A stretch of 64,000 nucleotides of DNA from Flaviramulus sp. BrNp1-15 (GTDB lineage: Bacteria; Bacteroidota; Bacteroidia; Flavobacteriales; Flavobacteriaceae): NCBI RefSeq assembly GCF_022259695.1, contig NZ_CP092099.1:168471-232470 (forward strand). Reading direction: 5' to 3'. The stretch's first letter is position 1, and each line of letters starts with the position of its first letter. The notes beneath the pieces were generated by a model that worked only from the letters and a program-made list of their open reading frames with translations, had not been told where the DNA came from and did not search any database. Positions 4,421-43,933 of this stretch are shown here, piece after piece. The position numbers were made by a program, and so were the translations under genes.

Positions 4421-4421
4421 C

Positions 4422-21350: not shown

Positions 21351-21434
21351 ATGTTATAATTTTAATGGTTAGTAATTTATTTTAACATACACATACCCGC
21401 TTTTAATAAACGGGTATGTGTATAAATTTATGTA

Positions 21435-22490
21435 TTAGAATGAGTAGATTGCAGCTAATACAAAAGAACCTAAACTTTTAGATCCAGCTAAATCATTATC
21501 AATAAACGCTTCTTCGGAAGCACTATCTAATCTAATTTCTGGTTTTACAGTCAAATTATCAATTGCAAGACTTCCTGTTAAAGTAAGTGCAAACACAGAA
21601 GCATCTCCATCAGCATCACTTGCTCCGATAGCTCCAAAAAAGTCAGTCTCAGTAAAGTACTCACCTCTTAAACCAATAGTAAAAGAATCTGAAGTAGCTA
21701 ATTGAGGGTATAAAGCAGCTCCAGCAAAAGAACCTCCGTCATCTTCTACAGTTAAATAAGCAGCATTAATTCCTAAAAAGAAATCATCAGATAAGTCAAA
21801 TCCTCCTGTATAGTCAATTTCAGTGAAAGAAGGATCTAGTAAGAAATTTAAATATTGTCCAGCATAACCTAATTGAGCACCGAAAGCATAATCTCCTGTT
21901 GGGTTAAATTCTGTTAAGTCAGTATCATTCATGACACCTAACATTAAACTAAAATCATCACCTAATGCAATATCTGCTTTTAAACCAGTATGACTGAATG
22001 GTCCATAAGAAAATAAATAAGATGTGCTATAGTTAAAGTTAGCTGTTGGAGAAATAACTTCATAACCTAAAAAGGTATTAAAGTTACCCATGGTTAATGT
22101 TACAGATTCACTTACATTCCAGTATGCATACAATTGATTTACAATGTTACCTGTACTAGAAATCACATCGTTTCTAGAAGAATACATTGGTGAAGCGAAA
22201 ATAGCATCCGTCCCTCTTGGGCCAAATACTAAATCAGCAACAAATCCCGCTTTCTCGCCTTCATAACTAAAAACTACATTGGCCATACCTAAAGCAAAAC
22301 CAGGTAATTGTGCAAATGATGATCCTGGTGCAATAGCATTTTCATCATTTGGCGCTGTCAAGTTAGCTCTATAATAAGCATCAACACTACCACTTATTGT
22401 GAATGAAGGAGTTGAATCTTCCTCTTCCTGTGCAAACAAACTACATGTACATGCTATAAAAAACATTGAAAGTGTAATAATTTTTTTCAT
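21435..22490 (-). CDS. outer-membrane beta-barrel porin-like protein, first gene of the amt cluster
   Basis: Signal peptide, alternating amphipathic beta pattern, C-terminal Phe. Confidence 0.55.
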   Translation of the reverse strand: MKKIITLSMFFIACTCSLFAQEEEDSTPSFTISGSVDAYYRANLTAPNDENAIAPGSSFAQLPGFALGMANVVFSYEGEKAGFVADLVFGPRGTDAIFASPMYSSRNDVISSTGNIVNQLYAYWNVSESVTLTMGNFNTFLGYEVISPTANFNYSTSYLFSYGPFSHTGLKADIALGDDFSLMLGVMNDTDLTEFNPTGDYAFGAQLGYAGQYLNFLLDPSFTEIDYTGGFDLSDDFFLGINAAYLTVEDDGGSFAGAALYPQLATSDSFTIGLRGEYFTETDFFGAIGASDADGDASVFALTLTGSLAIDNLTVKPEIRLDSASEEAFIDNDLAGSKSLGSFVLAAIYSF

Positions 22491-22949
22491 AATCGTTTTA
22501 ATTTTTGGTTATTAAATTTTAGTTAATTTTTCCTTAAGAATGAATCAAATCTATGTCAAAAAGATTTAACCCCCATAAAAAATAGGGGTATTAGACTTAC
22601 TTTTATCAATATTCTAATTTTTACCCCATTTTTTTATAGGTATTCTTGTAATTTTTTAATTTTTTGGTTTTTTAACAACATAGTTATTTGAATTATTGTC
22701 AGTTTTTTCTAATTTTTCATGATATTATTTTCATTAATTAAAATATTTATTAGCATAAATTCATATATCTGTATTTATCATTAAATTTTATGAATTGAGT
22801 ATTTATTAAAAAAAGAGTTTAATATTGATATATAATTATTTTTATCAAGAGTTCGCTTCTAAAATCGAAATAATGAAATACCCCTTATTGTAATTCAAAT
22901 TCTAGTACATATCTTTACGTTTCAACTCAATTTTTTAAACCAAAAAGCG

Positions 22950-25900
22950 TTGATTATGCTGAAGAAACAAGGTCTTTATTTACCAGAATTTGAACATGAA
23001 AATTGCGGGGCAGGTTTTATTTGTAATCTTAAAGGAGAAAAAACAAATCAAATCATTCATGATGCCTTAGAAATTCTAGTAAAATTAGAACATCGTGGTG
23101 GTGTTAGTGCAGATGGAAAAACCGGTGATGGTGCTGGATTATTAATAGATATTCCTCATGAGTATTTTGTGAGGGTGTGTGATTTTAAAATTCCTGCTGC
23201 AAGAGAGTATGCCGTAGGTATGATTTTTCTACCTAAAACCAAAAATCAATACCAATTTTGTAAAGATATTTTAGAGAATGAAATAAAAGCTCAAGGGCTT
23301 TCTGTTTTAGGGTGGCGAAAAGTGCCTGTAGACTCCTCTAATTTAGGAGAAATCGCAAAGGCTTCAGAACCTATTATTGAACAAATTTTTATTGGCAAAA
23401 CCGAGGATATTGATGAGGCTACCTTTAAAGCCAAATTATACGCAGCTCGTAAGATTGCAGAACATACTATTAGAAAATCAAAAATATCTGAAAGCGGTTA
23501 TTTTTATGTGCCTAGTTTATCAAACACAACGCTTATATATAAGGGTATAATTATGCCCGAAGATATTGGACCATATTATACCGATTTACAGCAAATTGAT
23601 TTAGTTACTCGTTTAGCTTTAGTGCATCAGCGTTTTTCAACTAACACTATGCCTACATGGGAGTTAGCACAACCATTCCGCTTTATGTGTCAGAACGGTG
23701 AAATTAACACCTTGCGTGGTAATGTGAGTAGAATGCGCGTGCGTGAAGAAATCATGAAAAGTGATGTTTTCGGACCACAAATAGATAAATTATTTCCAAT
23801 AATTCTTCCAGGAAAATCTGATTCTGCATCTATGGATATGGTTGTAGAATTATTAACTCATACAGGACGCTCATTACCAGAAATTATGATGATGATGATT
23901 CCAGAAGCATGGGAAAAACACAAAACCATGTCTGAAGAGCGCAAAGCGTTCTATGAGTACAATGGCTGCATCATGGAGCCTTGGGATGGACCTGCATCTG
24001 TACCTTTTACAGATGGTGATTACATTGGTGCTTTATTAGATAGAAATGGTTTAAGACCATCAAGATATACGGTTACAAAAAGTGGTAAGTTAATTATGTC
24101 TTCTGAAATTGGAGTTGTAGATATTGCTCCAGAAGATATAGAAAGTCATGGACGTTTAGAACCAGGAAAAATGTTCTTGGTAGACATGAACGAAGGTCGT
24201 ATTATTAAAGATGAGGAAATTAAAAGTAAGATTGTTTCAGAAAGACCATATAAAGCATGGTTAGACAAAACGCGCTTACATTTAAGAGATGTGCCTTACA
24301 CCAATACAACCTGCCCGATTGAAACCATTGATATAAAAACAAGACAACGTATATTTAACTATACATTTGAAGATATTCAAGAGGTAATAACTCCTATGGC
24401 TATTGTAGGTAAGGAAGCTTTAGGCTCTATGGGTACCGATACGCCTTTAGCAGTTTTATCAGATAGACCTCAACTTATTTCTAACTATTTTAAACAATTA
24501 TTCGCACAGGTTACTAACCCACCTTTAGATGGTATTCGTGAAGAAATTGTAACCGATATTAGTTTAAATCTTGGCAAAGACCGAAATATTTTCAGCATTA
24601 CAGAAAGACAATGTAGAAAATTAAGGATTCAAAATCCTGTGATTTCTAATGCCGATTTAGAAAAAATAAGAACCATTCAAATTGAAAGTTTTAAAGCTGA
24701 AACTATTCAAATTTTGTATCCAAAAGCTCAAGGTCTTAATGGATTAGAAGAAGCTTTAGATGATATTATCAGACAAGTTGAAAAAGCTTTAGAAAGAAAA
24801 ACAAACATAATTATTCTTTCTGATAGAGGTGTAAACAAAGATTTTGCTCCTATTCCAGCTTTATTAGCCTGTTCTTATGTAAACCATCAAATGAATCGTT
24901 TACGTAAGCGTTCTTATTTCGATATTATTATTGAATCTGCAGAACCTCGCGAACCGCATCATTTTGCAACCTTATTTGGCTATGGCGCAAGTGCTATAAA
25001 CCCGTATATGGTTAACGAAATTATTAGAATGCAGGTTAAAGAAGGCTTCATAAGTGATATGAACGAGCAACAAGCTGTTGATAATTTCAATAAAGCTATT
25101 GGGAAAGGTATTCTTAAAATAATGAACAAAATAGGAATCTCTACACTACATTCATACAGAGGTTCTCAAATTTTCGAAATTGTTGGTTTTAATTCTTCAT
25201 TTGTTGAAAAATATTTCCCTTATACAGCATCAAGAATTGAAGGTATTGGGTTGTACGAAATTGAAAGAGAAATTGACCAACGATACAAACAAGCATATCC
25301 AGATAATGCTGTAGATAAACATTTTGGTTTAAGCTTAAATATTGGTGGCGATTACAGATGGAGACGTAATGGTGAAAGACACCTTTTTAACCCAACAACA
25401 GTGGCAAAATTACAGCAAGCTGTTAGGTTAAGCGACCAAGCTAGTTATGATGTTTATGCAAAATCGATAAATGAACAATCTGAAAACTTAATGACCATTC
25501 GAGGGTTATTTGAGTTTGATAATTTAGATCCAATTCCTATTGATGAAGTGGAGCCCTGGACAGAAATTGTAAAGCGATTTAAAACTGGAGCCATGTCTTA
25601 CGGATCTATTTCTCGTGAGGCTCATGAAAATTTAGCTATTGCCATGAACAGAATTGGTGGTAAATCTAATTCTGGTGAAGGTGGTGAAGACAGAAAACGC
25701 TTCCATCCAGATGTGAATGGAGATAGTCGTAATTCGGCAATAAAACAAGTGGCTTCTGGTCGTTTTGGAGTAACTTCACATTACCTTACAAATGCCAAAG
25801 AAATTCAAATAAAAATGGCTCAAGGTGCAAAACCTGGTGAAGGTGGTCAATTACCAGCACACAAAGTTTTACCTTGGATTGCAGCTGCAAGAAATTCAAC

Positions 25901-27476
25901 GCCATTTGTGGGCTTAATTTCTCCTCCTCCACATCACGATATTTACTCTATTGAAGATTTAGCGCAGCTAATTTTCGACTTAAAAAATGCAAATCGCGAT
26001 GCGAGAATTAACGTAAAATTAGTATCAGAAGTTGGTGTTGGTACTATTGCTGCCGGAGTTGCTAAAGCAAAAGCAGATGTTGTTCTTATTTCAGGTTATG
26101 ATGGGGGTACAGGAGCATCTCCTTTAACCTCATTAAAACATGCAGGTTTACCATGGGAACTTGGTTTAGCAGAAGCACAACAAACACTGGTTTTAAACAA
26201 TCTTAGAAGTAGAATAGTTGTAGAATGCGATGGTCAGTTAAAAACAGGACGCGATGTTGCTATTGCTGCATTATTAGGTGCAGAAGAATTTGGGTTTGCA
26301 ACGGCACCATTAGTCGCTTCAGGATGTATTATGATGCGTAAATGTCATCTAAATACGTGTCCTGTAGGTATTGCAACTCAAGATAAAGAGCTACGTAAAA
26401 ACTTTAAAGGCACACCAGAACACGTTATTAATTTCTTCTATTACATAGCCGAAGAATTAAGAGGTATTATGGCGCAATTAGGTTTTAGAACTTTAGGTGA
26501 AATGGTAGGTCAAACTCATAAAATTAATGCTAATAAAGCTATAAAGCATTATAAAGCTAAAGGTCTAGATTTATCGAGTATTTTACATACACCAAGTGTT
26601 TACAGACAATTAATTGTAAAGAATACAGAAAAACAAGACCACAATCTTGAAAATGTTCTGGACTTTACAATTCTTAAAGATTCTCATAGAGCGCTTTACA
26701 GAAAAGAAAAAATGACGCTTGAGTATCCTATAAGGAATATTAACCGTACCGTAGGTGCTGTGGTTAGCAACGAAATTTCAAAAATATACGGTCATTTAGG
26801 ATTGCCAGAAGATACCCTAAACATAAACTTCACAGGGTCTGCAGGACAAAGTTTTGGAGCTTTTGGTGCACATGGTTTAACTTTTACTTTAGAAGGAAAC
26901 ACCAACGATTACCTTGGTAAAGGACTTTCTGGAGCTAAATTAATTGTAAAAAAACCAGCAAAAGCTGATTTTATTGCCGAAGAAAACATAATAATCGGTA
27001 ACGTTTGTTTATTTGGTGCGGTACATGGTGAAGCTTACATAAACGGAATTGCAGGTGAGCGTTTTGCTGTTCGAAATTCTGGAGCAACTGCTGTAGTTGA
27101 AGGTGTTGGAGATCATTGTTGTGAATATATGACTGGTGGAAAAATAGTTGTGCTCGGTAAAACGGGTAGAAACTTTGCTGCTGGTATGAGTGGTGGTATT
27201 GCTTATGTTTACGACCCTGAGAATAAATTTGTAAACGGTTTATGTAATACCGAAACTATTGAATTTGAAGATATTTCTACAGAAGATTCAGTTGAATTAA
27301 AAGGGTTAATAGAAAAGCATGTATTATATACAAACAGTAAATGTGGTAACAGACTATTAGAAAACTGGGAAACCAGCCTAGGTGATTTTGTAAAAGTGAT
27401 GCCTACTGAATACAAACGTGCTCTAAAACGTTTAGAGACTGAAGAACCAATGGTAGAAGAATTAGAAATAGCATAA
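22950..27476 (+). CDS. gltB: glutamate synthase large subunit
   Basis: N-terminal Cys amidotransferase (ENCGAGFI), FMN and 3Fe-4S domains, GXGXG C-terminal domain; 1508 aa. Confidence 0.95.
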
Positions 27477-27480
27477 TGAC

Positions 27481-28944
27481 ATGGGAAAAGTAACAGGATT
27501 TAAAGAATTTGAAAGACAAGATGAAACTTACACGCCTGTTGAAGAACGTGTAAAACATTATAAAGAATTTACAGTACCACTAAGTGATACTGAAATCAAA
27601 AAACAAGGGTCGCGTTGTATGGATTGCGGAATACCATTTTGCCATAGCGGTTGTCCACTTGGAAATCTAATTCCAGATTTTAACCATATGGTACATCAAG
27701 GGGAATGGCAAAAAGCTTCTTGGATATTACATTCAACAAATAATTTTCCAGAATTTACAGGACGCTTATGTCCTGCACCATGTGAAAAATCATGTGTTTT
27801 AGGTATTATTGAAGACCCGGTTTCTATTGAAAATATTGAAAAAAATATTGTTGAACGTGCATTTAAGGAAGGATGGATTAAACCTCAGCCTCCAAAAACA
27901 CGAACTGGTAAAACTGTTGCTGTAGTTGGTTCTGGACCTGCTGGTTTAGCTGCCGCACAACAATTAAACAGAGCTGGACATACGGTAACTGTTTTTGAAC
28001 GCGATGATGAAATTGGTGGTTTATTAAGATATGGTATTCCTAATTTTAAAATGGAAAAGGAGATTATAGATCGTCGTTTAGCCATTTTAAAAGCAGAAGG
28101 TATCACTTTTAAAACCGATGTAAATGTTGGTGTTAATTACGATGTAAAAGAACTTAAAGCCTTTGATTCTGTAGTTTTATGTGGTGGCGCTACCGAAAGA
28201 CGTAGCTTACCAACTCCAGGTATTGATGCAGACGGTGTCGTACAAGCTATGGATTTTTTAACCCAACAAACCAAAGTATTGTTTGGTAAAAAAGTAGAAA
28301 ACCAAGTTATGGCTACAGATAAAAATGTGATTGTAATTGGTGGTGGAGATACAGGTTCAGATTGTATAGGAACCTCTAATCGTCATGGAGCAAAATCGGT
28401 TGTGAATTTTGAAATTATGCCGAAACCTCCAGGACATCGTTCACCAACTACGCCATGGCCTTATTGGCCACTTCAGTTAAAAACATCATCTTCTCATCAA
28501 GAAGGTGTTGAAAGAAACTGGTTAATAAACACTAAAGAGTTTGTAAAAGATAAAAACGGTAAACTAACCGCCTTAAAAACGGTAAATGTTGAGTGGAAAA
28601 TGGTTCCTGGACAGCGTCCACAACTCGTTGAAATTGAAGGTACCGAGAAAAAATGGCCTTGTGATTTAGCATTATTAGCCTTAGGGTTTACAGGACCTGA
28701 AAGTACACTGGCTGATAAATTAGGCATTAAAACTGATGCGCGATCTAATTATAAAGCAGAATACGGTAAATACCAAACTAACATTCCAAATATATTTGCC
28801 GCCGGCGATATGCGTCGCGGACAATCGTTAATTGTTTGGGCCATATCTGAAGGTAGAGAAGCTGCTAGACAGGTGGATATTTATTTAATGGGTAAATCAG
28901 ATTTACCATCAAAAGATGTTGCTGGCGATTTAGTGGCGATGTAA
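27481..28944 (+). CDS. gltD: glutamate synthase small subunit (NADPH)
   Basis: 2x[4Fe-4S] Cys clusters plus FAD/NAD Rossmann folds (VAVVGSGPAGL); 487 aa. Confidence 0.9.
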   Translation: MGKVTGFKEFERQDETYTPVEERVKHYKEFTVPLSDTEIKKQGSRCMDCGIPFCHSGCPLGNLIPDFNHMVHQGEWQKASWILHSTNNFPEFTGRLCPAPCEKSCVLGIIEDPVSIENIEKNIVERAFKEGWIKPQPPKTRTGKTVAVVGSGPAGLAAAQQLNRAGHTVTVFERDDEIGGLLRYGIPNFKMEKEIIDRRLAILKAEGITFKTDVNVGVNYDVKELKAFDSVVLCGGATERRSLPTPGIDADGVVQAMDFLTQQTKVLFGKKVENQVMATDKNVIVIGGGDTGSDCIGTSNRHGAKSVVNFEIMPKPPGHRSPTTPWPYWPLQLKTSSSHQEGVERNWLINTKEFVKDKNGKLTALKTVNVEWKMVPGQRPQLVEIEGTEKKWPCDLALLALGFTGPESTLADKLGIKTDARSNYKAEYGKYQTNIPNIFAAGDMRRGQSLIVWAISEGREAARQVDIYLMGKSDLPSKDVAGDLVAM

Positions 28945-28967
28945 AACATTATTTTCAACTAAAAAAC

Positions 28968-29003
28968 TAACCCTTTATTCAATTGATTAAAGGGTTTTTT
29001 ATT
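28968..29003 (+). terminator. rho-independent terminator after gltD
   Basis: AACCCTTTATTCAATTGATTAAAGGGTT hairpin followed by T6. Confidence 0.65.
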
Positions 29004-29075
29004 TAATGCAACTATGTATATCTACTAAATAAAATTTGGAACTTATATCTTAAAAACCTGATATTTGTATCGTAA

Positions 29076-29198
29076 ATGAGAAAAAAAATAGTACATATAG
29101 CTCCTGGATCACTGTTTAGTCAGTGTGATTATCGAAAAAATGAAATGAATATTTTTATCGAACAAGGACGTAATGTATCTATTATTAATGATTTATAA
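29076..29198 (+). CDS. possible small protein (40 aa)
   Basis: ATG ORF MRKKIVHIAPGSLFSQCDYRKNEMNIFIEQGRNVSIINDL, followed 35 bp later by a strong terminator (29234-29262). Confidence 0.2.
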   Translation: MRKKIVHIAPGSLFSQCDYRKNEMNIFIEQGRNVSIINDL

Positions 29199-29233
29199 AC
29201 AAGATTTAAATTAATAAAACCTATAATATTTAC

Positions 29234-29262
29234 AAGCGTCCAAGAAATTGGACGCTTTTTTT
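29234..29262 (+). terminator. rho-independent terminator
   Basis: AGCGTCCAAGAAATTGGACGCT hairpin followed by T7. Confidence 0.6.
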
Positions 29263-29610
29263 ATGAAAAAAATTAAACTAATTTGAATATAAATTTTAAC
29301 AATTAAAATAGTAAGCATTGAAGAGTAAGCAATTGGTAGACAGACTTTTGCCATTTATCTCAATAATCTGCAATAATGCGGACAGGAATTTCTATGCTTA
29401 AATTTCAATACAACTAACTGATTATCAACAATTTAAATGTAATTTTATTTGTTTAATTAAAAAATGTGTTTAATATTTGCACCGCAGTTTTAAAGAATAG
29501 CTGTAAACAAAAAAACAAATTAAAAACAAGAAGCCATGCTTAAATATATGTTAGCATTTCAACCATTTAGTAATGACGTTGAGTCATTAAGGCTTCGGTA
29601 TATTTTTCTG

Positions 29611-29659
29611 TAGAGTTACTTCCCAGAAAAAAAATCCGAAGCAAAATAACTGTTTCGGA
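29611..29659 (+). terminator. rho-independent terminator, possibly the 3' end of an unannotated small RNA
   Basis: AATCCGAAGCAAAATAACTGTTTCGGATT hairpin followed by T8. No protein-coding gene lies upstream within 350 bp. Confidence 0.55.
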
Positions 29660-29660
29660 T

Positions 29661-29689
29661 TTTTTTTATTCAGATTCCCATTTTCATGG
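29661..29689 (+). repeat. copy 1 (diverged) of the GGATTCCC-N-GGGAATGACAA hairpin repeat family
   Basis: AGATTCCCATTTTCATGGGAAGAACAATT; 7-bp stem TTCCCAT/ATGGGAA. Confidence 0.5.
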
Positions 29690-29770
29690 GAAGAACAATT
29701 CAAGAATACATTAATCTGAACAGTTTTTAGGCATACGAAAATCGTGATGCTTATAAAACAGTAACAATTT

Positions 29771-30322
29771 ATGAATAACATCATGGGAAATAATTTACAC
29801 AATAGTTATGTGTTTCAGGCTTTAGATGCTTATCCATATAACTTAGAAGAAACATTAGAAGCATTAAACTATGCTTTATCATATAACGAAAAAGATGCGC
29901 AAGCACTTTGCTTAATGGGACGTGTTTATGCTGAACAATTAAAAAATTACGAAACAGCTAAACACTATTTTGCAGAAGCTGTTACACAACATATGGAAAT
30001 GCCAAAAACATATCCATACTACATTCAAACTTTACTGTGGAATGAAGATTATGTTGAAGCACAAAAGTTGTTAGATTTTGCACAAACTGTAAAAGGCGTA
30101 GATAAAGCATTGTTAGAATTAATGCAAGGGATTTTATTTGAAAAACTGGGTCAATTTAAAGTTGCTATTAAAATTTTTAAAAGAGCAAAAAAAACAGCTA
30201 CAAATAACGGTTTTATAGACTATGTAGATAATGAATTGTCTAGAGTTAAGAAGAAGATGAACCCTAAAAAGAAATGTAAAAAAAAAAAGAAGAAGTTAAA
30301 TAAAAAAAGAAAGGAGAAATAA
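29771..30322 (+). CDS. TPR-like protein with poly-Lys C-terminal tail
   Basis: Helical-repeat body; C-terminal KKKMNPKKKCKKKKKKLNKKRKEK encoded over A11 and A7 homopolymers. Confidence 0.5.
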   Translation: MNNIMGNNLHNSYVFQALDAYPYNLEETLEALNYALSYNEKDAQALCLMGRVYAEQLKNYETAKHYFAEAVTQHMEMPKTYPYYIQTLLWNEDYVEAQKLLDFAQTVKGVDKALLELMQGILFEKLGQFKVAIKIFKRAKKTATNNGFIDYVDNELSRVKKKMNPKKKCKKKKKKLNKKRKEK

Positions 30323-30354
30323 GAAAATCGGTAAACCAAGTTTGCCGATTTAAT

Positions 30355-30436
30355 GGGAATTCGTCAGCGTTGGAGAGCTGAGGCAGTCTGTAAAACTGTT
30401 ACTTGCGTTGAGAAAGTTCGAATCTTTCAATTCCCA
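30355..30436 (+). tRNA. tRNA-Tyr (GTA), type II with long variable arm; atypical C8
   Basis: Hand-folded: 7-bp acceptor GGGAATT/AATTCCC, D-arm TCAG/CTGA, anticodon loop CTGTAAA, 12-nt variable arm, T-arm GAAAG-TTCGAAT-CTTTC. Position 8 is C, not U, and GC content is only ~42%. Confidence 0.6.
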
Positions 30437-30441
30437 CAAAA

Positions 30442-30511
30442 GTGTTTATAGTGTAACGGCTCGCACGAGAGGTATATCCTCTAAGATCAAGTTCGACTCT
30501 TGATAAACACT
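30442..30511 (+). pseudogene. degenerate tRNA-like unit (70 nt) with truncated anticodon loop
   Basis: Acceptor GTGTTTA/TAAACAC, D-arm and T-arm (TCAAG-TTCGACT-CTTGA) are intact. The anticodon arm is a 5-bp stem with only a 5-nt loop TATAT (or 4 bp plus GTATATC, anticodon ATA). Confidence 0.4.
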
Positions 30512-30515
30512 TAAA

Positions 30516-30588
30516 GGAATAGTAGCAAAGTTGGTCAATGCGTCAGACTGAAAATCCAAAAATATAGGTTCGATTCCTATCTGTTCCA
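30516..30588 (+). pseudogene. degenerate tRNA-like unit lacking an anticodon stem
   Basis: Acceptor GGAATAG/CTGTTCC (with G-U), D-arm GCAA..TGC, and canonical T-arm ATAGG-TTCGATT-CCTAT. The 21 nt in the anticodon position (TCAGACTGAAAATCCAAAAAT) cannot form a 5-bp stem. Confidence 0.4.
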
Positions 30589-30699
30589 CATTAAAATATC
30601 AAGCTAGTCTTGTTGGGTGTTTCGGTATAGCACTATTGTATAAAACGTTGCAGAAACGCATCATGTTTTTATGTTCAACTAGACTTGAAGGTTTGGGTT

Positions 30700-30755
30700 T
30701 AATCCAAAAAAATCCACCAGTTCTATGTACGTGAGTTCGAATCTCACCTTCTCTG
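30700..30755 (+). other. tRNA 3'-half fragment (T-arm plus acceptor 3' strand only)
   Basis: GTGAG-TTCGAAT-CTCAC T-arm followed by CTTCTCT; no complementary 5' acceptor strand upstream. Confidence 0.35.
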
Positions 30756-30759
30756 AAAT

Positions 30760-30825
30760 GAAGAAGTAGCTTAGCGGTGAAGCAGTAGATCGTAGCTGTC
30801 ATCGGTTCGAATCCGGTCTTTAACT
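30760..30825 (+). pseudogene. degenerate tRNA-like unit (D-arm and T-arm intact, acceptor stem unpaired)
   Basis: TA-GCTT-AGCGGTG-AAGC D-arm and ATCGG-TTCGAAT-CCGGT T-arm. The 5' GAAGAAG cannot pair with 3' CTTTAAC. Confidence 0.35.
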
Positions 30826-30838
30826 TAGGAAATCCTTG

Positions 30839-30911
30839 GTTATTGTAGCTCAGTTTGGTTAGAGCACTACTCTGTTAAAGTAGGTTATGGACTTATAATC
30901 CATCAACACCA
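30839..30911 (+). tRNA. tRNA-Asn (GTT)-like; anticodon and D arms canonical, acceptor stem 5/7 bp and atypical T-loop CTTATAA. Possibly a pseudogene.
   Basis: TA-GCTC-AGTTTGGTTA-GAGC D-arm, CTACT-CTGTTAA-AGTAG anticodon arm, ATGGA-CTTATAA-TCCAT T-arm. Confidence 0.4.
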
Positions 30912-31239
30912 AAGCTTATCATCTTGTAAAACTGATAGCCATGTAGTTTGTCTCTCTACTCTAAAAAAATTGACAATAATAGTGGATTGCAAATTGGCTT
31001 TAAATTTTTGCTTTCGTGAGAATGAGAAAATTGAAGCAATCTGGATAGTACTTTGAAATACTGATTTTTAATTGTTAGATATAACACGTGTTTTGTTTTC
31101 AGGTTTTAAAACGACGTATCAAATTATTGATATGGGCTTTTGATTTCTCAATACATAACACAAATTATTGAGGCTTTTAATATGAGTATTTCCGTACTAG
31201 AAAGATGATTTGTAATCTGCTGTTTTTTTAAATAACGAT

Positions 31240-31335
31240 GAATCGCGTGAAGGATAGAAGTGGCATCCTTTTTTGATTTTTTTCAAAAAAGATATAACGG
31301 ATAGCCTGTTGCATTTTTTATGCACACGCCCAAAA
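31240..31335 (+). repeat. copy II of a ~90-nt stem-closed structured repeat (5' box GCGT.., central A/T hairpin TGGCATCCTTTTTTGA..AAAAAAGATATAA, 3' box ACGCCCAAAATA)
   Basis: Shares the TGGCATCCTTTTTTGA...AAAAAAGATATAA core and the ACGCCCAAA(A)TAT 3' box with 43829-43933, and the 3' box with 340-423. Confidence 0.45.
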
Positions 31336-31450
31336 TATACTTTAAATCATAACAAACTCGTAGTTATGAATTGAAGTTGGTAACCCTTCCTTTACAGGTT
31401 TTACCAGTTCCTTAATTGGAAAAATTTAATGTTTAATTTAAAAATTAGAA

Positions 31451-32551
31451 ATGATGAAACGAGTAAGAATTAATGCAGGAAAAGTAGGTTTGGTTTTCAA
31501 AAATGGTAACTATTTAAAAGTAATTACCGAAGGAAAACACTGGTTAGGTTTTAATCAACGTGTGTTGGTTTATGACCTTGCGAACACCTTTGCGACTCCT
31601 ATAGCGTTAGAGCTCTTACTAAAAGACAAAACGTTGGAAGCGATGTTAGATGTGATTGAGGTTAAAGACGGTGAACTGGTTTTGGTTTACGAAAAAGGTA
31701 ACTTTAAAAACACACTTGCTGCTGGACGCTATGTGTACTGGAAGGGTTTGATTGAACGTGAATTTGTTCGTGCAGATTTAAGCAAAATTTATATTACTGA
31801 GAAGATTGACAAAGCATTATTCAGCAATTATGAATTGAGCAAATACATTAGAACTTTTGAGGTTTCGGCTTACGAAAAAGCTGTGCTTTTAGTTGATGAT
31901 GTATATACAAAGACGCTTGACGGCGGAACTTACAGATTCTGGAGAAATGACACAACAATTAAAATTGCAAAGGCTGATTTGCGTCAGTTGCAATTAGAAA
32001 TTGCTGGACAAGAATTGTTAACCAAAGATAAAGCTGCAATTCGTATAAACTTTTATACACAGTATAAAGTTACAGATATTGAAAAAGCTTTACTTGAAAA
32101 CAAGGATTACGAAAAGCAATTATACATTGCTATGCAATTGGTACTACGTGCTTATGTTGGTACGTATACTTTAGATGAGCTTTTAGAACGTAAAGAGAAT
32201 ATTGCGGAAGCGGTTTTTGAAAACGTTAAAACTAGTGCAACTAAATTAGGTGTTACGGTTTTAAACTGTGGTATTAGAGATGTGATTTTAACTGGAGAAA
32301 TGAAAGAGATTATGAATCAGGTTCTAGTCGCACAAAAGAAAGCTCAAGCAAACGTTATTATGAGACGTGAAGAAACTGCTTCTACTCGTAGCTTGCTAAA
32401 TACGGCAAAGTTAATGGAAGAGAATGACATGCTGTACAAGCTAAAAGAAATGGAGTATGTGGAAAAAATCGCTGAGAAAATTGGTGAAATCACAGTTTCA
32501 AATAATGGTGGTGTTGTTACACAATTGAAAGAGATTTTCTCTGTAAAATAA
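31451..32551 (+). CDS. SPFH/band-7 (stomatin-like) domain protein
   Basis: 366-aa ORF. The central region resembles SPFH and the C-terminal coiled-coil resembles stomatin/HflKC; assigned by composition and motif resemblance only. Confidence 0.45.
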   Translation: MMKRVRINAGKVGLVFKNGNYLKVITEGKHWLGFNQRVLVYDLANTFATPIALELLLKDKTLEAMLDVIEVKDGELVLVYEKGNFKNTLAAGRYVYWKGLIEREFVRADLSKIYITEKIDKALFSNYELSKYIRTFEVSAYEKAVLLVDDVYTKTLDGGTYRFWRNDTTIKIAKADLRQLQLEIAGQELLTKDKAAIRINFYTQYKVTDIEKALLENKDYEKQLYIAMQLVLRAYVGTYTLDELLERKENIAEAVFENVKTSATKLGVTVLNCGIRDVILTGEMKEIMNQVLVAQKKAQANVIMRREETASTRSLLNTAKLMEENDMLYKLKEMEYVEKIAEKIGEITVSNNGGVVTQLKEIFSVK

Positions 32552-32598
32552 GTGGTGTTTAATAGATGCGTTAGTGTAAAAAGCTAACGCATTTTTTA

Positions 32599-33603
32599 TT
32601 AAACATTCTGCATAAACCCTTCACACTTTTCAACCATATTTTTACTTCCGCAAATAAAAGGTGCTCGTTGATGAAGTTCTGTAGGTTCAATATCCATTAT
32701 TCTTGTAAAACCATCACTTGCTTTTCCATTTGCTTGTTCTGCTAAAAATGCCATAGGATTACATTCGTATAACAACCTTAATTTTCCATTAGGGTTTTTA
32801 GAGCTTTTTGGGTATAAATAAATACCGCCTTTTATCATATTTCTATGAAAATCGGAGACTAAAGATCCTATGTATCTAGAGGTATAAGGTCTATCGTCTT
32901 CTTCTTGCTGGCAATATTTAATATAATTTTTTACGCCCTGTGGGAAATGAATATAATTGCCTTCGTTTACAGAATAAATCGTGCCATCCTCAGGAAATTG
33001 CATATCTGGATGCGATAAATAAAACGACCCAATGGCCGGATTTAAAGTAAAACCATTAACACCATCGCCTGTAGTGTAAACCAACATGGTAGACGTACCA
33101 TAAACCACATAACCGGCAGCAACTTGCTGACTTCCTTTTTGTAGAAAATCCTTTAAAGTTACAGGTGTTCCAACAGGAGTAACGCGTCTATAAATTGAAA
33201 AAATGGTCCCTACAGAAACATTCACATCAATATTTGAGGAGCCATCTAATGGGTCAATTAAAACAACATATTTATTTTGATGGTTTTCATCTTGACTATT
33301 AATAGCAATAAAATCATCTTCTTCTTCACTGGCAATTCCACAAACAATATTCCTGTTAGTTAGGGTTTGTATAAACTTATCATTGGCATAAACATCTAAT
33401 TTTTGCTGATCTTCACCTTGAATATTGGTATCGCCTATAGCGCCTATAATATCAACCAAACCAGCTTTATTAACTTCATGATTTACAACTTTAGCGGCTA
33501 ATCTTATGGAATTTATTAAACTGGATAATTCTCCTGATGAATATTTAAACGATGTCTGATTTTCGATAATAAATTCTCCTAAAGTCTGTTTTTTATGCGT
33601 CAT
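32599..33603 (-). CDS. fbp: fructose-1,6-bisphosphatase class I
   Basis: [12 protein letters not shown] metal-binding motif; 334 aa. Confidence 0.9.
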
Positions 33604-33705
33604 AAATAAAAGTTGATTTGTTTGTACAAATATCTTATAAATTTTAACTAACTACAACGTTTTCGCTGAAGAATACTCTATGATATATTCAACTTTAAAC
33701 TATAT

Positions 33706-34206
33706 TTGAAATATTTTAAAAATATTATGAATTTCACAATAAGAGAAGCTAGAAAAAATGATATGCCACAAGTGCATAGCCTAATAAAGGAATTGGCTGA
33801 ATTTGAAAAAGAAGCTCATGCTGTTGAAGTTACTGTAGCCGATTTAGAAAATGATGGCTTTGGAAAACATCCTGCTTTTCATTGTTTTGTTGCAGAAATA
33901 AACTCTAAAGTTGAAGGCATTGCTTTGGTTTATAATAGATATTCTACCTGGAAAGGAAAAATTATACACTTAGAAGATTTAATTGTTAGTCAATCTATGC
34001 GAGGTTCTGGTATTGGTACAGCGCTTTTAGACGAAGTAGTAAAATATGCGTATAAGTTAGGAGTTAAGCGCATTAATTGGGAAGTTATAGATTGGAATGA
34101 ACCAGCCATTGCATTTTACGAAAAAAAAGGTGCCAAAGTATTACGCGATTGGGATGTAGTTTGGCTAGATGAAATAGGTATTAATAATTATGTAGCTAAT
34201 TTATAA
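33706..34206 (+). CDS. GNAT family N-acetyltransferase
   Basis: Acetyl-CoA binding motif RGSGIGTALL; 166 aa. The true start may be the internal Met at 33727. Confidence 0.7.
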   Translation: MKYFKNIMNFTIREARKNDMPQVHSLIKELAEFEKEAHAVEVTVADLENDGFGKHPAFHCFVAEINSKVEGIALVYNRYSTWKGKIIHLEDLIVSQSMRGSGIGTALLDEVVKYAYKLGVKRINWEVIDWNEPAIAFYEKKGAKVLRDWDVVWLDEIGINNYVANL

Positions 34207-34207
34207 T

Positions 34208-35458
34208 ATGCAAGTATTTAAGTTTGGTGGAGCTTCAGTAAAAGATGCAAAAGGGGTTAAAAACTTGGTGTCTGTATTACAAAAAGTAGGCTTTAAAAAT
34301 ACCCTTATTGTGGTTTCTGCCATGGGAAAAACCACTAATGCTTTAGAAGCTGTTATTAAAAATTATTTTGAAAACAAGAAGGAATTACAAAGCTCGCTTC
34401 AAGATGTAAAAAAATATCATAATGAAATTCTTTTAGATTTATTTGAAAACGAAAATCATCAAGCTTTTAAAAAAGTTGCTGCGCTTTTCAATGAATTAAA
34501 TGATTTCCTAAAAACGAATAAATCACCTGATTATAATTTTGTTTACGATCAAACTATTGGTTTTGGTGAGTTAGTTTCAACAACTATTATTAGTGAGTAT
34601 TTAAATGCCATTGGGTTACACAACAATTGGTTAGATGTTAGAGATTTTATTAAAACCGATAATTATTACAGGCGTGCAAATATTAATTGGGAAGCCACCC
34701 AAAGTTTAATATCATCAAACTTAAACCCATCTGTTTTAAATATTACTCAAGGCTTTTTAGGTAGCGACTCAAATAACTTTACAACTACACTTGGTAGAGA
34801 AGGTAGCGATTATACAGCCGCTATTTTTGCCTATTGTTTAAATGCAGAACGTGTAACTATTTGGAAAGATGTTCCAGGTGTATTAAATGCAGACCCGCGT
34901 TATTTTGATAATGCCAAATTATTAAACAAAATATCGTATACCGAAGCTATAGAGTTGGCCTTTTATGGAGCGTCGGTAATTCATCCAAAAACATTACAAC
35001 CTTTACAGGGAAAAGAAATTCCGCTATATGTTAAATCGTTTTTAAATCCTGAAGCCTCTGGAACAAGAATAGGTAAAAATGTAACTCTTGAACCTATGAT
35101 TCCTTGTTTTATTGTAAAGAAAAACCAAATATTGATTTCATTATCATCATTAGATTTTTCATATATCGTTGAAGAAAATATTAGTGAGATTTTCAATCTT
35201 TTACATCATTACAAAATGAAGGTTGATGTTATTCAAAATTCAGCCATTAGTTTTTCAGTTTGTGTTGATAATATTTATAATAATCTAGATAAATTATTAC
35301 ATCATTTAAAAGCAAAATTTAAAGTAACATACAATGAAAATGTTTCTCTTTATACTATTAGGCATTATAATGAACAGGCCATTAATCAAATTGAAACAGG
35401 TAAAACCGTGTTATTAAAACAATTAACTCAAGAAACCGTTCAAATAGTAACTAAATAG
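34208..35458 (+). CDS. lysC: aspartate kinase
   Basis: VFKFGGASV ... VVSAMGKTTNALE amino-acid kinase signature plus C-terminal ACT domains; 416 aa. Confidence 0.9.
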   Translation: MQVFKFGGASVKDAKGVKNLVSVLQKVGFKNTLIVVSAMGKTTNALEAVIKNYFENKKELQSSLQDVKKYHNEILLDLFENENHQAFKKVAALFNELNDFLKTNKSPDYNFVYDQTIGFGELVSTTIISEYLNAIGLHNNWLDVRDFIKTDNYYRRANINWEATQSLISSNLNPSVLNITQGFLGSDSNNFTTTLGREGSDYTAAIFAYCLNAERVTIWKDVPGVLNADPRYFDNAKLLNKISYTEAIELAFYGASVIHPKTLQPLQGKEIPLYVKSFLNPEASGTRIGKNVTLEPMIPCFIVKKNQILISLSSLDFSYIVEENISEIFNLLHHYKMKVDVIQNSAISFSVCVDNIYNNLDKLLHHLKAKFKVTYNENVSLYTIRHYNEQAINQIETGKTVLLKQLTQETVQIVTK

Positions 35459-35479
35459 TTTATTTAGTACATTTACCGC

Positions 35480-37309
35480 ATGACCAAACAACAAGATACC
35501 GGGTTAGTAACTGCCAAAGAAGTGGCTAAAGCCATTCAATTAGACAAGTATGGTTTTATTGGTACTTTTGTTGGCTGGCTTTTAATGAAACTGCTTAAAA
35601 TTTCTAAGCTTAATAAAATTTATAATCGCAATAAACATTTAGAAGAATTGCCTTTTTTAAATGCGATTTTAAATGACTTTCAAATTAAATTTGAAATCCC
35701 TGAAGAAGATTTAAAACGTTTACCAAAAGATGGTGCTTACATTACCATTTCTAATCATCCTCTTGGTGGTATTGATGGTATTTTGCTATTAAAATTAATG
35801 TTAGAGCAACGCAAAGATTTTAAAATAATTGCCAACTTTTTATTACACAGAATTGAGCCTTTAAAGCCATACATTATGCCTGTAAATCCTTTTGAAGACA
35901 GGAAAGATGTTAAGTCTAGTGTAACAGGTTTTAAGAATTCTATTTTACATTTAAAAGACGGACATCCTCTTGGTATTTTTCCTGCTGGAGAAGTATCAAC
36001 ATATCGTGATGGTAAATTGGTAGTTGATAAACCTTGGGAAGAAGCTGCTATGAAATTAATAAAGAAAGCAGAAGTTCCTGTAGTTCCTATTTACTTTCAT
36101 GCCAAAAACAGTAAGCTATTTTATAAGCTTTCAAAAATTAATGACACGTTTAGAACAGCTAAATTACCTTCGGAATTATTAACTCAAAAAAGACGTGTTA
36201 TAAAGGTTAGGATTGGCAGACCTATTTCTGTTGACGACCAAAAAGAGCATACGGCTATAGATGAATTTTCAGAATTTTTAAGAAAAAAAACTTATATGTT
36301 ATCTAATTCTTTCGAGGATAAATCGAAAATATTAGATAATATTTCTTCTACTTTAAAAGCGCCTAAAGCACCAAAAAGTATTGTCACTCCAGTTGATACT
36401 ACGTTAATGACTAAAGAGGTTGATGCGCTTCGAGAAAATGATTCCAGACTTTTAGAAAGTAAAAATTACGAGGTGTTTTTAGCACAAGCAGATAAAATTC
36501 CTAATGTTTTACGAGAAATAGGACGTTTACGAGAAATTACATTTAGAGAAGTTGGTGAAGGCACAAACGAAGCTATAGATTTAGATACTTTTGATAATTA
36601 TTACCACCATATGTTTTTATGGGATAATGAACGAAAATTGCTTGCCGGTGCTTACAGAATGGGATTAGGTTCCAAAATATATGAGCAATTTGGTATTGAT
36701 GGTTTTTACCTTCAAGACTTGTTTAGGTTTGAACCCGAATTGCATAAAATGATGAGCCAGTCTATAGAAATGGGACGCGCATTCATCATTAAAGAATATC
36801 AACAAAAACCAATGCCTTTATTTTTACTTTGGAAAGGTATTGTGCATACTACTTTACGCCACCCAGAACATAAATATTTAATTGGTGGGGTTAGTATTAG
36901 TAATCAGTTTTCAAATTTCTCAAAATCCTTGATGATTGAGTTTATGAAATCGCATTACTACGACCCATACATTGCCCAATATGTTCGTCCTAAAAAAGAG
37001 TTTAAAGTAAAGCTTAAAGACGCCGATAAGGACTTTGTTTTTGATGAAACCGAAGCCGATTTAAACAAGTTTGACAAATTTATTGATGAAATAGAACCAG
37101 GAGCATTACGTTTACCGGTTTTACTTAAAAAATACATTAAACAAAATGCTAAACTGGTAGCGTTTAATGTAGATCCTTTGTTCAACAATTCGGTTGATGG
37201 TTTAATGTACATTAAAATTGCCGATTTACCCGAAAGCACTGTTCGCCCTGTTATGGAAGAGTTTCAGGCAGAATTGGAACGTAAGTTTGCTGAAAATAAT
37301 GGTGGTTAA
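35480..37309 (+). CDS. bifunctional acyltransferase, OlsF-like (N-terminal PlsC-type O-acyltransferase with HX4D motif; C-terminal hemolysin/OlsB-like N-acyltransferase)
   Basis: HX4D motif in ITISNHPLGGIDG and second motif FPAGEVS in the N-terminal domain. The C-terminal ~300 aa resemble lyso-ornithine/glycine lipid N-acyltransferases. The 609-aa length matches Flavobacterium OlsF. Confidence 0.5.
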   Translation: MTKQQDTGLVTAKEVAKAIQLDKYGFIGTFVGWLLMKLLKISKLNKIYNRNKHLEELPFLNAILNDFQIKFEIPEEDLKRLPKDGAYITISNHPLGGIDGILLLKLMLEQRKDFKIIANFLLHRIEPLKPYIMPVNPFEDRKDVKSSVTGFKNSILHLKDGHPLGIFPAGEVSTYRDGKLVVDKPWEEAAMKLIKKAEVPVVPIYFHAKNSKLFYKLSKINDTFRTAKLPSELLTQKRRVIKVRIGRPISVDDQKEHTAIDEFSEFLRKKTYMLSNSFEDKSKILDNISSTLKAPKAPKSIVTPVDTTLMTKEVDALRENDSRLLESKNYEVFLAQADKIPNVLREIGRLREITFREVGEGTNEAIDLDTFDNYYHHMFLWDNERKLLAGAYRMGLGSKIYEQFGIDGFYLQDLFRFEPELHKMMSQSIEMGRAFIIKEYQQKPMPLFLLWKGIVHTTLRHPEHKYLIGGVSISNQFSNFSKSLMIEFMKSHYYDPYIAQYVRPKKEFKVKLKDADKDFVFDETEADLNKFDKFIDEIEPGALRLPVLLKKYIKQNAKLVAFNVDPLFNNSVDGLMYIKIADLPESTVRPVMEEFQAELERKFAENNGG

Positions 37310-43828: not shown

Positions 43829-43933
43829 ATTACGAAGTTTTGCGTTAGCGATTGAAATGGCATCCTTTTTTGAGATACGAAAAAAAGATATAATGAAAAG
43901 CGCGACCCTTGTGGTAACGCCCAAATATTAAAT
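43829..43933 (+). repeat. copy III of the ~90-nt stem-closed structured repeat; its 3' box abuts the mgtE stop codon
   Basis: TACGAAGTTTTGCGTTAGCGATTGAAATGGCATCCTTTTTTGAGATACGAAAAAAAGATATAATGAAAAGCGCGACCCTTGTGGTAACGCCCAAATAT. The 5' GCGTTA can pair with the 3' TAACGC. Confidence 0.5.

Follow-up and report, generated by a model that had tools for sequence, protein, structure and literature searches.

Long accessory arrays of tRNA genes (L-arrays), which include pseudogene members, occur in Bacteroidetes (Santamaria-Gomez et al. 2021, PMC8421152). The GOLLD RNA is tied to tRNA islands, as in the arrays of Mycobacterium (PMC6582537) and in the cryo-electron microscopy paper on GOLLD (PMC12286853), and such arrays, along with GOLLD, are usually regarded as horizontally transferred (PMC8421152, PMC6582537, PMC12286853). 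A tRNA-like module of another kind belongs to the bacterial Y RNA YrlA, in which a T-arm, a stem-loop at the acceptor position, a D-arm and a closing stem follow one another (Chen et al. 2014, PMC4201824); the M. smegmatis YrlA has a 7-bp acceptor-position version that is cut by RNase P and receives CCA (PMC4201824). Here, we compare with these systems a locus from a 64,000-nucleotide segment of the chromosome of Flaviramulus sp. BrNp1-15 (henceforth the window, with a GC content of 31% over its whole length). Between the genes for a TPR-repeat protein and for slipin, a stomatin-family SPFH protein, an earlier note had described six head-to-tail tRNA-shaped units, numbered 1 to 6, as one plus-strand array. 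Our analysis showed that tRNA-shaped units are indeed present on this strand at 30355-30911, far beyond chance, but that they do not make up a single six-unit array. Very probably, two unrelated RNA loci abut at about position 30590. The first, 30355-30589, is a three-gene remnant (tRNA-Tyr, a tRNA-His-derived unit X and tRNA-Phe, which are units 1 to 3) of a long accessory tRNA array of the L-array type. The second, from 30594 to at least 30959, is a separate, vertically conserved structured RNA of the Flavobacteriales that is apparently undescribed and apparently outside the registered RNA families; units 4 to 6 are mis-phased slices of two circularly permuted tRNA-like domains within it (Table 1).

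We compared the window with 80 syntenic loci (L001-L080), retrieved via the slipin protein with one genome per species, and with 111 contigs from an RNA-first metagenome search by the motif of the RNA's 5' domain, which together give about 190 copies. The stretch 30590-31230 is conserved in 79 of the 80 syntenic loci, about 650-900 nt upstream of the slipin gene. The conserved RNA is also present in loci free of any array (L007, L062, L067, L069, L071, L073 and L075), in which the region of units 4 to 6 retains 70-93% identity. Most columns of 30598-30700 are more than 90% identical across the 80 loci. This part folds into a three-way junction, the junction residues of which are nearly invariant, followed by a separate hairpin. 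RNAalifold, run on 80 sequences over 30594-30722, predicted 29 pairs. Compensatory changes occur in 15 of these, such as UA 35 / AU 23 / GU 16 at one pair and AU 46 / GC 27 at another, and the many G-U pairs identify the strand of the conserved RNA as plus. The 5'-domain motif occurs once in the window. No family of Rfam 15 covers this domain in a scan at E-values up to 10 across 30250-31350, a region that gave only tRNA matches, weak YrlA matches and weak fragments of transfer-messenger RNA (tmRNA).

At the 3' side, the RNA is at least 366 nt long because two further hairpins, 30914-30939 and 30943-30959, also covary. The former shows compensatory changes in all four predicted pairs, one of which occurs as GC 21, UA 20 and CG 4, and the innermost pair of the latter occurs as CG 21, UA 19 and AU 3. 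The hairpin that precedes them, 30887-30903, is what the earlier note had taken for the non-TTCRA T-arm of unit 6.

Between the 5' domain and these hairpins lie the two permuted domains, A and B. In both, the order of elements is T-arm, closed acceptor stem, U8-A9 and D-arm: the strand 3' of each T-arm pairs with the 5' strand of the next unit and not with that of its own unit, which yields a closed hairpin. Examples are CTTCCCC...GGGGAAG in L016, TCCCGAA..TTCGGGA in L004 and CATAAAC..GTTTATG in Tenacibaculum. The two domains are broken at different places. In domain A, the counterpart of the anticodon stem is a 5-bp stem formed by the sequence 5' of the variable loop and the sequence 3' of the D-arm, with the "ends" of the domain at the place of the anticodon loop. 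Domain B has a local anticodon-like hairpin 3' of its D-arm and the break in the variable region; its loop triplet differs among species, being GTT in the window and TTT, CAT or AAG elsewhere.

Several lines of evidence establish this topology. First, in a best-partner scan in which a downstream partner had to precede U8-R9, the 187 T-arms of the RNA had a downstream partner with 7/7 pairs in 72 cases and with at least 6/7 pairs in 101, while the canonical upstream partner reached 7/7 in 3. The 772 array tRNAs showed the reverse, with 478 canonical against 22 downstream partners. Second, the proportion of paired cells is 98.5% over 53 domains, with compensatory changes in 14 of 15 pairs; shifting one strand by 1-3 positions reduces pairing to 31-47%. 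Third, among 63 copies of domain A, including those from metagenomes, this proportion is 97.2%, and compensation is seen in 18 of 21 pairs (shifted controls, 40-50%). The closing stem of domain A, which had no role in sequence selection, is 97.5% paired, with pair types such as UA 35 / GC 10 / AU 6 and AU 48 / GC 14. Further, the nucleotides of the tRNA elbow, namely U8, A14, G15 with C48 (the Levitt pair), GG (G18G19), TTC and A58, show little or no variation. With a covariance model of domain A, the window, which belongs to the seed, scores 54 bits, and loci outside the seed score 70-86 bits; the model reaches at least 50 bits at the expected place in about 75 of 79 loci, and junctions between ordinary array tRNAs reach 30-49 bits.

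The acceptor hairpins of distant copies frequently carry a UUCG cap, which speaks for their being meant to remain closed. A minority of copies, among them those of L002, L005, L019, L030 and L035, have an acceptor loop made of ACCA plus a short spacer, and this is what an origin of a permuted tRNA by tandem duplication would leave. Some species have, as one domain of the RNA, a type II module that resembles tRNA-Leu and bears a long variable arm (L002, L003, L005, L006, L035, L041, L049, L054, L063, L068, L072, L074 and L076, at about 4350-4650). The "anticodon" of this module depends on the genome (TCG, TTG, AGG, ATG, TAG, AAG, GAA or TAA), and ARAGORN calls such modules odd 82-96-nt tRNAs, namely His-atg, Arg-tcg, Ile-gat and Lys-ttt.

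Most of what had been noted for units 4 to 6 can be read directly onto these domains. Unit 4, rightly described as a T-arm with a 3' strand (30731-30754), is the T-arm half of domain A. Unit 5 combines the D-arm half of domain A with the T-arm half of domain B; its acceptor had been called unpaired, but its ends do pair at 5/7 positions, and it is with the 3' strand of unit 4 that its 5' strand really pairs. Unit 6 consists of the D-arm half of domain B, the anticodon-like hairpin with the loop CUGUUAA and the following hairpin, and it does show every feature ascribed to it: a loop with GTT, D and anticodon arms that pair perfectly and a hairpin not of the TTCRA type. Among the explanations offered at that time, a tRNA-like structured RNA fits units 4 to 6, with compensatory changes in about 190 loci, including array-free ones.

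ARAGORN called three plus-strand tRNAs, Tyr(gta) at 30355-30437, "Tyr(ata)" at 30441-30512 and Phe(gaa) at 30516-30589. Against the gathering score of the Rfam tRNA model (29 bits), unit 3 (62.3 bits, 30516-30588) and the stretch of unit 6 (37.3 bits, 30839-30911) lie above it, unit 5 (27.6 bits, 30760-30825) just under it and unit 1 (18.2 bits, 30373-30436) below it; units 2 and 4 have no Rfam match whatever. Units 1 to 3 pair their own acceptor strands at 7/7 positions, whereas units 4 to 6 fail to form a canonical free-ended acceptor. A 7-nt loop on a 5-bp anticodon stem is found in units 1 and 6 but not in unit 2, unit 3 (3/5 pairs) or domain A, which has no anticodon loop. An ordinary tRNA operon with the same sequences in relatives, which the earlier note had said would overturn its account, exists in part, for units 1 and 3 but not for units 2, 4, 5 and 6.

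Permuted tRNA sequences are not without parallel: the red alga Cyanidioschyzon merolae reportedly has circularly permuted tRNA genes (Soma et al. 2007) that are processed via circular intermediates to normal tRNAs. As there, the 3' half lies upstream of the 5' half, the acceptor strands are complementary and ACCA is present in some species. However, the algal process uses eukaryotic enzymes, whereas here the acceptor hairpins are mostly closed by 3-5-nt loops, often UUCG, domain A is without an anticodon loop and the domains are embedded in a larger RNA. tmRNA likewise embeds a stacked T-arm and acceptor in a larger RNA and does without a normal anticodon arm, but the RNA described here lacks a free 5'/3' acceptor end, a tag reading frame and pseudoknots. 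ARAGORN called no tmRNA, and the Rfam model RF00023 gave only local matches of 6-13 bits on the T-arm.

The RNA is tightly linked to the slipin gene. In the 111 metagenome contigs, slipin follows 560-900 nt after the start of the RNA on the same strand wherever the contig reaches far enough, with the single exception of L151, in which about 1.4 kb of downstream sequence holds no slipin match. The linkage persists down to 45-58% identity of the slipin protein; one distant group is Chryseobacterium, and the RNA-slipin pair thus spans at least the Flavobacteriaceae and the Weeksellaceae. The slipin protein matches stomatin in PDB at 2e-14 and falls in the SPFH family also by Foldseek. It has no predicted membrane segment (maximum 19-residue hydropathy 1.33) and carries an extra N-terminal all-beta domain; elsewhere its AlphaFold model is poor (predicted local distance difference test score, pLDDT, 52). 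A Foldseek match to the vault protein is marginal (E 4e-3), and the PADLOC defence-system models gave no match to the slipin protein.

This linkage admits the main rival to an independent RNA, namely that the conserved block is a cis-acting 5' leader of the slipin mRNA, working as a sensor or a processing platform. Such a leader is consistent with slipin following on the same strand at a short distance, with conserved islands that continue up to its start codon, e.g., TTTCCGT and GACACGCCCAAAAT, and with the three-way junction, the invariant residues of which give it the look of an aptamer. Against this, a Flavo-1 element (a hairpin with a U-run) is inserted between the RNA and slipin in the window and several relatives with the arrangement otherwise undisturbed, and the conserved block directly upstream of slipin could be the gene's own promoter. 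Moreover, in array-bearing genomes the RNA would sit more than 1 kb into a tRNA transcript, and no alternative terminator/antiterminator fold was identified. We consider the leader possible, though on balance we doubt it.

Flavo-1 itself (Rfam RF01705) behaves like a dispersed or mobile hairpin element: the window holds three copies of about 53 bits each, at 128-245 (minus strand), 31240-31315 (plus) and 43837-43911 (plus). The copy beside slipin occurs in only some relatives (e.g., L004, L006 and L012), and its stretch is not conserved in the 80-locus alignment. As regards the intergenic islands, the most distant copies keep GACACGCCCAAAAT about 110 nt before the slipin start codon (31327-31345 in the window) and TTTCCGT about 250 nt before it (31190-31200). 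Upstream of the RNA, at about 90 nt (roughly 60-100 nt over the copies), distant copies have a palindrome, TACGCAA-N5-TTGCGTA, followed by a CTTTG box (L084, L087, L098, L100, L109, L122, L140, L153, L167 and L186, of the Chryseobacterium type and others), a pair that looks like an operator with a Bacteroidetes-type promoter.

Given the permuted topology, units 4 to 6 could also be taken for a bona fide bacterial Y RNA of the YrlA family that works with Ro60/Rsr. The order of elements is identical to that of the YrlA tRNA-like domain (PMC4201824), with the stem-loop at the place of the acceptor and the closing stem both present and the nucleotides of the tertiary interactions kept, and the Rfam YrlA model (RF02553) matches relatives at E 3e-5 to 2e-4 and the window at E 0.033. 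However, all these scores lie between 23 and 40 bits, against a gathering score of 69, and cover the tRNA-like part alone (model positions 23-88): 23.1 bits in the window, with a match at 30774-30894 over domain B, and 27-40 bits in relatives, the best of which (37-40 bits, L004 and L036) extend over model positions 19-90 only. By inspection of 30594-30959, the Ro-binding motif GNCGAA(N)G (GNCGAAN0-1G) was not found, the sole CGAA being that of two T-loops, TTCGAAT; a long Ro-binding stem is not visible either. Unlike YrlA, the RNA has two tandem tRNA-like domains, one of them with an anticodon-like arm, and a large unrelated 5' domain. Its neighbour is an SPFH gene in place of rsr/rtcB, with no TROVE or RtcB among the ten open reading frames (ORFs) at 20046-37309. 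We therefore regard a genuine Y RNA as quite improbable and do not file the RNA as one, while inferring that it would work like a YrlA-type tRNA mimic, its closest analogue.

Turning to the first locus, relatives carry plus-strand arrays of 0-18 tRNA genes in a conserved order at the same site between the TPR and slipin genes, with spacers of 2-10 nt. Relatives have 10-18 good tRNAs there, which score 45-79 bits on the Rfam tRNA model; an array is found in most genera of the Flavobacteriaceae, among them Hanstruepera, Winogradskyella, Jejuia, Seonamhaeicola, Aquimarina, Tenacibaculum and Dokdonia. The order is (Lys Ser Ser Asn Cys) Tyr (Trp Arg) Asp Ser Pro Glu Val Ile/Met, continuing as Lys Leu Leu Arg Gln His (X) Phe. 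Units 1 to 3 correspond to the first and the last two members of this array, which starts near Tyr and ends with His-(X)-Phe, and an internal deletion in this lineage would account for the loss of the genes that once lay between Tyr and X. The same Tyr-X-Phe trio, at 85% identity, is found in L008, a metagenome-assembled genome labelled Winogradskyella; the three-gene state is therefore real and persistent. At the other extreme, 27 of the 132 loci with enough upstream sequence have no array tRNA at all. Such complete loss in several species suggests, indirectly, that the array is redundant with the housekeeping tRNAs.

The three remaining members differ in their state of preservation. Unit 1 does have the C8 remarked upon earlier. 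C8-G9 with a 5-bp D-stem is one of two types among array tRNA-Tyr genes, found in 27 of 47, with compensatory changes in the acceptor, D and anticodon stems; C8 is thus a conserved trait of the array tRNA-Tyr and not damage. The low Rfam score of this unit is due to its atypical D-arm, and the tRNA apparently is intact and looks functional. Unit 2, or X, has the 5-nt loop reported for it, TATAT, in place of a 7-nt anticodon loop, and aligns to the array tRNA-His(GTG) of L009, L026 and L042 with the acceptor, D and T-arms intact but without the His-specific extra 5' G. To judge from this loop, X cannot decode. It stands directly 5' of tRNA-Phe in at least 20 loci of several genera, and in four (L005, L016, L021 and L022) it occurs together with a true tRNA-His. 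Its arms are conserved as well as those of its neighbours; the stem beside the loop has mismatches in some lineages, and a small insertion breaks X in three loci. It may be a functional, if odd, conserved member of the array or a slowly decaying paralogue. The insertion, of about 60-130 nt and starting ...GTTCGAA|ATGC(A/T)..GCATTCATGA, splits the T-loop of X (L010 about 1331-1460, L015 about 184-300 and L027 3945-4075); it also occurs in the T-loop of a tRNA-Gln-like gene (L153, about 4362), which suggests a miniature element targeting T-loops.

For unit 3, the tRNA-Phe, the earlier note saw no anticodon stem; this is too strong, as three of the five pairs of the weakened stem TCAGA/TCCAA form. 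The two mismatches, C-A and A-C, are specific to the window, and orthologues have paired stems (TCAGA/TCTGA in L053 and TCGGA/TCCGA in L036). Thus, the tRNA-Phe shows what, from its sequence, is genuine incipient decay. The units, described earlier as AT-rich for tRNAs, have a GC fraction of 0.39-0.46 against 0.51 for the tRNA-Leu(CAA) of the window. Among side observations on the arrays, ARAGORN reports a "tRNA-Stop" with the anticodon TTA at the usual place of tRNA-Gln(TTG) in Winogradskyella sp. R77965 (L030 4001-4072), which could be an ochre-suppressor-like variant in an accessory array. The array of Aquimarina is interrupted, between the Thr/Ile/Met gene and tRNA-His, by a 288-aa ORF on the minus strand (L044 2187-3053), and equivalent gaps of about 1 kb occur in L047, L050, L055, L057, L059 and L070. 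We considered an endonuclease for this insertion and rejected it, the ORF encoding a very hydrophobic, transporter-like membrane protein.

With both loci described, the proposal that all six units are one tRNA operon decaying in place to pseudogenes can be weighed. Decay is real for units 1 to 3, in the form of the large internal deletion and the two mismatches of the tRNA-Phe, and the array of relatives is visibly eroded, from 18 tRNAs to none, with gaps of 80-300 nt between genes. Units 4 to 6, by contrast, lie downstream of tRNA-Phe, the last array gene, and their conservation in array-free loci refutes the proposal for them. Their compensatory changes preserve a topology that is not that of a tRNA, and pseudogenes would not keep UUCG-capped 7-bp acceptor hairpins across two families. 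As an account of the whole, decay is very improbable.

The comparison with L-arrays and GOLLD islands applies to the first locus. The arrays of relatives consist of many co-oriented, tightly spaced tRNA genes, are patchy among relatives, include pseudogene-like members and, in 19 loci, adjoin a GOLLD-like RNA; the window retains a remnant. The GOLLD-like RNA lies in an ORF-free element of about 925 nt between tRNA-Phe and the conserved RNA (L012 3355-3859, L036 3530-4010 and 17 more, e.g., L001, L006, L008, L016, L023 and L033). Its RF02032 scores, 138.6 bits in L012 (E 1e-36) and 119.1 bits in L036 (E 9e-31), are just below the gathering score of 150. The domain-A model also has weak matches to a tRNA-like piece inside this element, e.g., L012 3422-3500. 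In contrast to L-arrays, the array described here stays at one fixed chromosomal site with the same two border genes in many genera and shows no homing endonuclease, and the window keeps only three members, without the middle of the array and without a GOLLD-like RNA: neither a match to RF02032 nor BLAST similarity to the element of relatives was found in it. Such a fixed site is more suggestive of vertical inheritance accompanied by repeated erosion, or of homologous replacement, than of horizontal insertion at scattered places.

The common view of arrays and GOLLD as horizontally transferred, and their varying presence among genomes at one fixed site, are also what could be adduced for the earlier proposal that the units are scars left by mobile elements that repeatedly integrated into, and excised from, a tRNA attachment hotspot. 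However, as was already noted, no integrase, phage or insertion sequence gene flanks the locus; the Pfam scan of the ten ORFs found housekeeping neighbours only. Neither att-like duplications, such as direct repeats of tRNA 3' ends, nor island variation were seen. Rather than being partial copies of a single tRNA, the units each have orthologues of their own, and their order is the same from genus to genus. Among 2.9 million viral contigs, none carries the 5'-domain motif, and the array and GOLLD-like RNA of a relative gave only generic single-tRNA matches in 50,697 phage records. Scars are hardly credible as an explanation. That the block encodes a small protein, e.g., by the 67-codon minus-strand ORF at 30599-30802 that exists in the window, can be dismissed, since across 185 copies and all six frames the median longest stop-free run is 32-41 of 110 codons, indel lengths do not follow multiples of three and helix substitutions are compensatory, with plus-strand G-U pairs.

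Four points weigh against the view of 30594-30959 as a structured RNA with two permuted tRNA mimics and a tie to slipin. First, the single-sequence fold of 30594-30965 is no better than that of shuffled sequences (z = 0.06). Second, domains were pre-selected for at least 5-6 acceptor pairs, which makes the percentage of acceptor pairing partly circular, although the diversity of pair types in the acceptor helix and the T-arm partner scan are not affected by this circularity. Third, domain B of the window has 5/7 acceptor pairs and a 14-nt loop, and the covariance model of domain A missed it. Fourth, in some genomes Flavo-1 places a terminator-like hairpin between the RNA and slipin, which argues against obligatory co-transcription and is silent on a complex of the two.

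The surroundings of the locus are those of an ordinary chromosomal region, with housekeeping genes on both sides: gltB/gltD, the TPR protein, slipin, FBPase and aspartate kinase. The TPR gene forms the conserved left border in closer relatives, and most of L001-L080, as well as some of the metagenome contigs, contain sequence homologous to this flank. The C-terminus of the TPR protein (30247-30322) is a strongly basic, Lys-rich tail, KKKMNPKKKCKKKKKKLNKKRKEK, which could bind nucleic acid. Between this gene and the array lies a palindromic hairpin, the region of which has an inverted self-match also in L004 and L022. In the array-free relative L007, the TPR ORF ends at 4228, where the conserved RNA starts, and the two abut directly.

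Table 1. Features of the TPR-slipin interval and of the conserved RNA (window coordinates)
Feature	Position	Strand	Description and basis
TPR-repeat protein gene	29771-30322	+	Pfam TPR matches
Palindromic hairpin	30325-30351	.	AAAATCGGTAAAC..GTTTGCCGATTT; read from the sequence, right after the TPR stop codon
Unit 1, tRNA-Tyr(GTA)	30355-30437	+	"C8-G9, 5-bp D-stem" type; ARAGORN, Tyr genes of relatives
Unit 2 (X), tRNA-His paralogue	30441-30512	+	ARAGORN "Tyr(ata)" (forced); alignment to tRNA-His(GTG)
Unit 3, tRNA-Phe(GAA)	30516-30589	+	Normally the terminal array gene; Rfam tRNA match with two non-pairs flagged
5' domain	30594-30716	+	Three-way junction and separate hairpin; conservation, RNAalifold
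5' domain, P1	30599-30608 / 30678-30688	+	Bulged A; closes P2 and P3-P4
5' domain, P2	30617-30621 / 30629-30633	+	
5' domain, P3	30638-30648 / 30663-30674	+	
5' domain, P4	30649-30652 / 30657-30660	+	GAAA (GNRA) loop
5' domain, P5 hairpin	30695-30700 / 30710-30715	+	Loop AAUCCAAAA (carries CCAAAA)
Domain A	30722-30789	+	Circularly permuted; pair counts, covariance model
Domain A, closing stem	30722-30726 / 30785-30789	+	TCTAT / GTAGA; equals anticodon stem
Domain A, variable loop	30727-30730	+	
Domain A, T-arm	30731-30747	+	
Domain A, closed acceptor hairpin	30748-30754 / 30760-30766	+	Loop GAAAT
Domain A, U8-A9	30767-30768	+	
Domain A, D-arm	30769-30783	+	
Domain B	30801-30883	+	Circularly permuted; alignments, pair counts
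Domain B, T-arm	30801-30817	+	
Domain B, long closed acceptor hairpin	30818-30824 / 30839-30845	+	5/7 pairs
Domain B, acceptor extension	30827-30829 / 30834-30836	+	AGG / CCT
Domain B, D-arm	30848-30865	+	
Domain B, anticodon-like hairpin	30867-30883	+	Loop CUGUUAA
Hairpin	30887-30903	+	ATGGA-CUUAUAA-TCCAT, loop consensus CUNAAAA; homologue AAUAGA-CUCAAAA-UCUAUU in distant copies
Conserved hairpin	30914-30939	+	GCTTATCA / TGATAGC, loop UCUUGUAAAAC; RNAalifold, 49 loci
Hairpin	30943-30959	+	GTAG / CTAC, loop consensus YUGUCAC; last element with covariation evidence
Further conserved blocks	30965-31235	+	E.g., 31036-31072 and 31177-31232 (with TTTCCGT); conservation profile, BLAST blocks
Flavo-1 RNA motif	31240-31315	+	Dispersed element; Rfam RF01705, 53.4 bits
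Slipin gene	31451-32551	+	Stomatin-family SPFH protein; Pfam Band_7, 100% identity to "slipin family protein [Flaviramulus sp. BrNp1-15]"

How the RNA might act can be outlined from these features. Since only 4 nt separate it from the tRNA-Phe, on the simplest reading it would be co-transcribed with the upstream tRNAs in the window and then released by 3' end-processing of the tRNA. Its two domains would fold into tRNA-shaped elbows or L-shapes that, with their acceptor ends joined, could not be aminoacylated. Joined acceptor ends together with tRNA-like elbows point to molecular mimicry of tRNA, by which the RNA may dock on a factor recognizing either the tRNA elbow or the T-arm stacked on the acceptor stem; candidates are RNase P, the enzymes that modify T- and D-loops, the ribosome or a dedicated protein. 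The 5' domain, with its invariant three-way junction, would bind a specific partner, for which the soluble SPFH neighbour is the prime candidate. In a related reading, this domain would be a sensor of a ligand or protein that controls the exposure of the tRNA-shaped domains.

SPFH proteins assemble into closed cages, and in eukaryotes the vault protein has an SPFH-like shoulder domain. A bolder proposal, which we put forward as a speculation with the odds clearly against it, is that the RNA is a subunit or a dedicated regulator of the neighbouring SPFH protein, which lacks a membrane anchor. The strict linkage in two families, the absence of a membrane segment, the aptamer-like junction and the closed acceptor stems are compatible with it. 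If true, the soluble SPFH assembly and the tRNA-mimic RNA of several domains that it carries would form a vault- or Ro-like ribonucleoprotein, and we know of none of this kind, made of a soluble SPFH protein and a tRNA-mimic RNA, in bacteria. Full-text literature, in the part covered, contained no description of a tRNA-like RNA beside slipin or SPFH genes in Flavobacteria, which is suggestive only.

The ordinary part of the locus is thus the remnant of a known type of accessory array, and the interesting part is the RNA with permuted tRNA-like domains. The former places the window in a chromosomal comparative series, from 18 genes to none at one site, on the keeping and losing of such arrays and of GOLLD. 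As for the latter, tRNA finders and Rfam slice the RNA into low-scoring tRNAs or pseudo-tRNAs with arbitrary anticodons (Asn here; His, Arg, Ile and Lys in relatives), and the annotations of many marine Flavobacteriaceae and of Chryseobacterium probably hold spurious tRNA or pseudogene calls at this locus. The RNA family joins a sensor-like junction domain to two permuted tRNA mimics in at least two families of an ecologically dominant order. It would extend tRNA mimicry of the YrlA type beyond the Ro/Y RNA systems and offers a testable handle on an RNA paired with a soluble stomatin-family gene.

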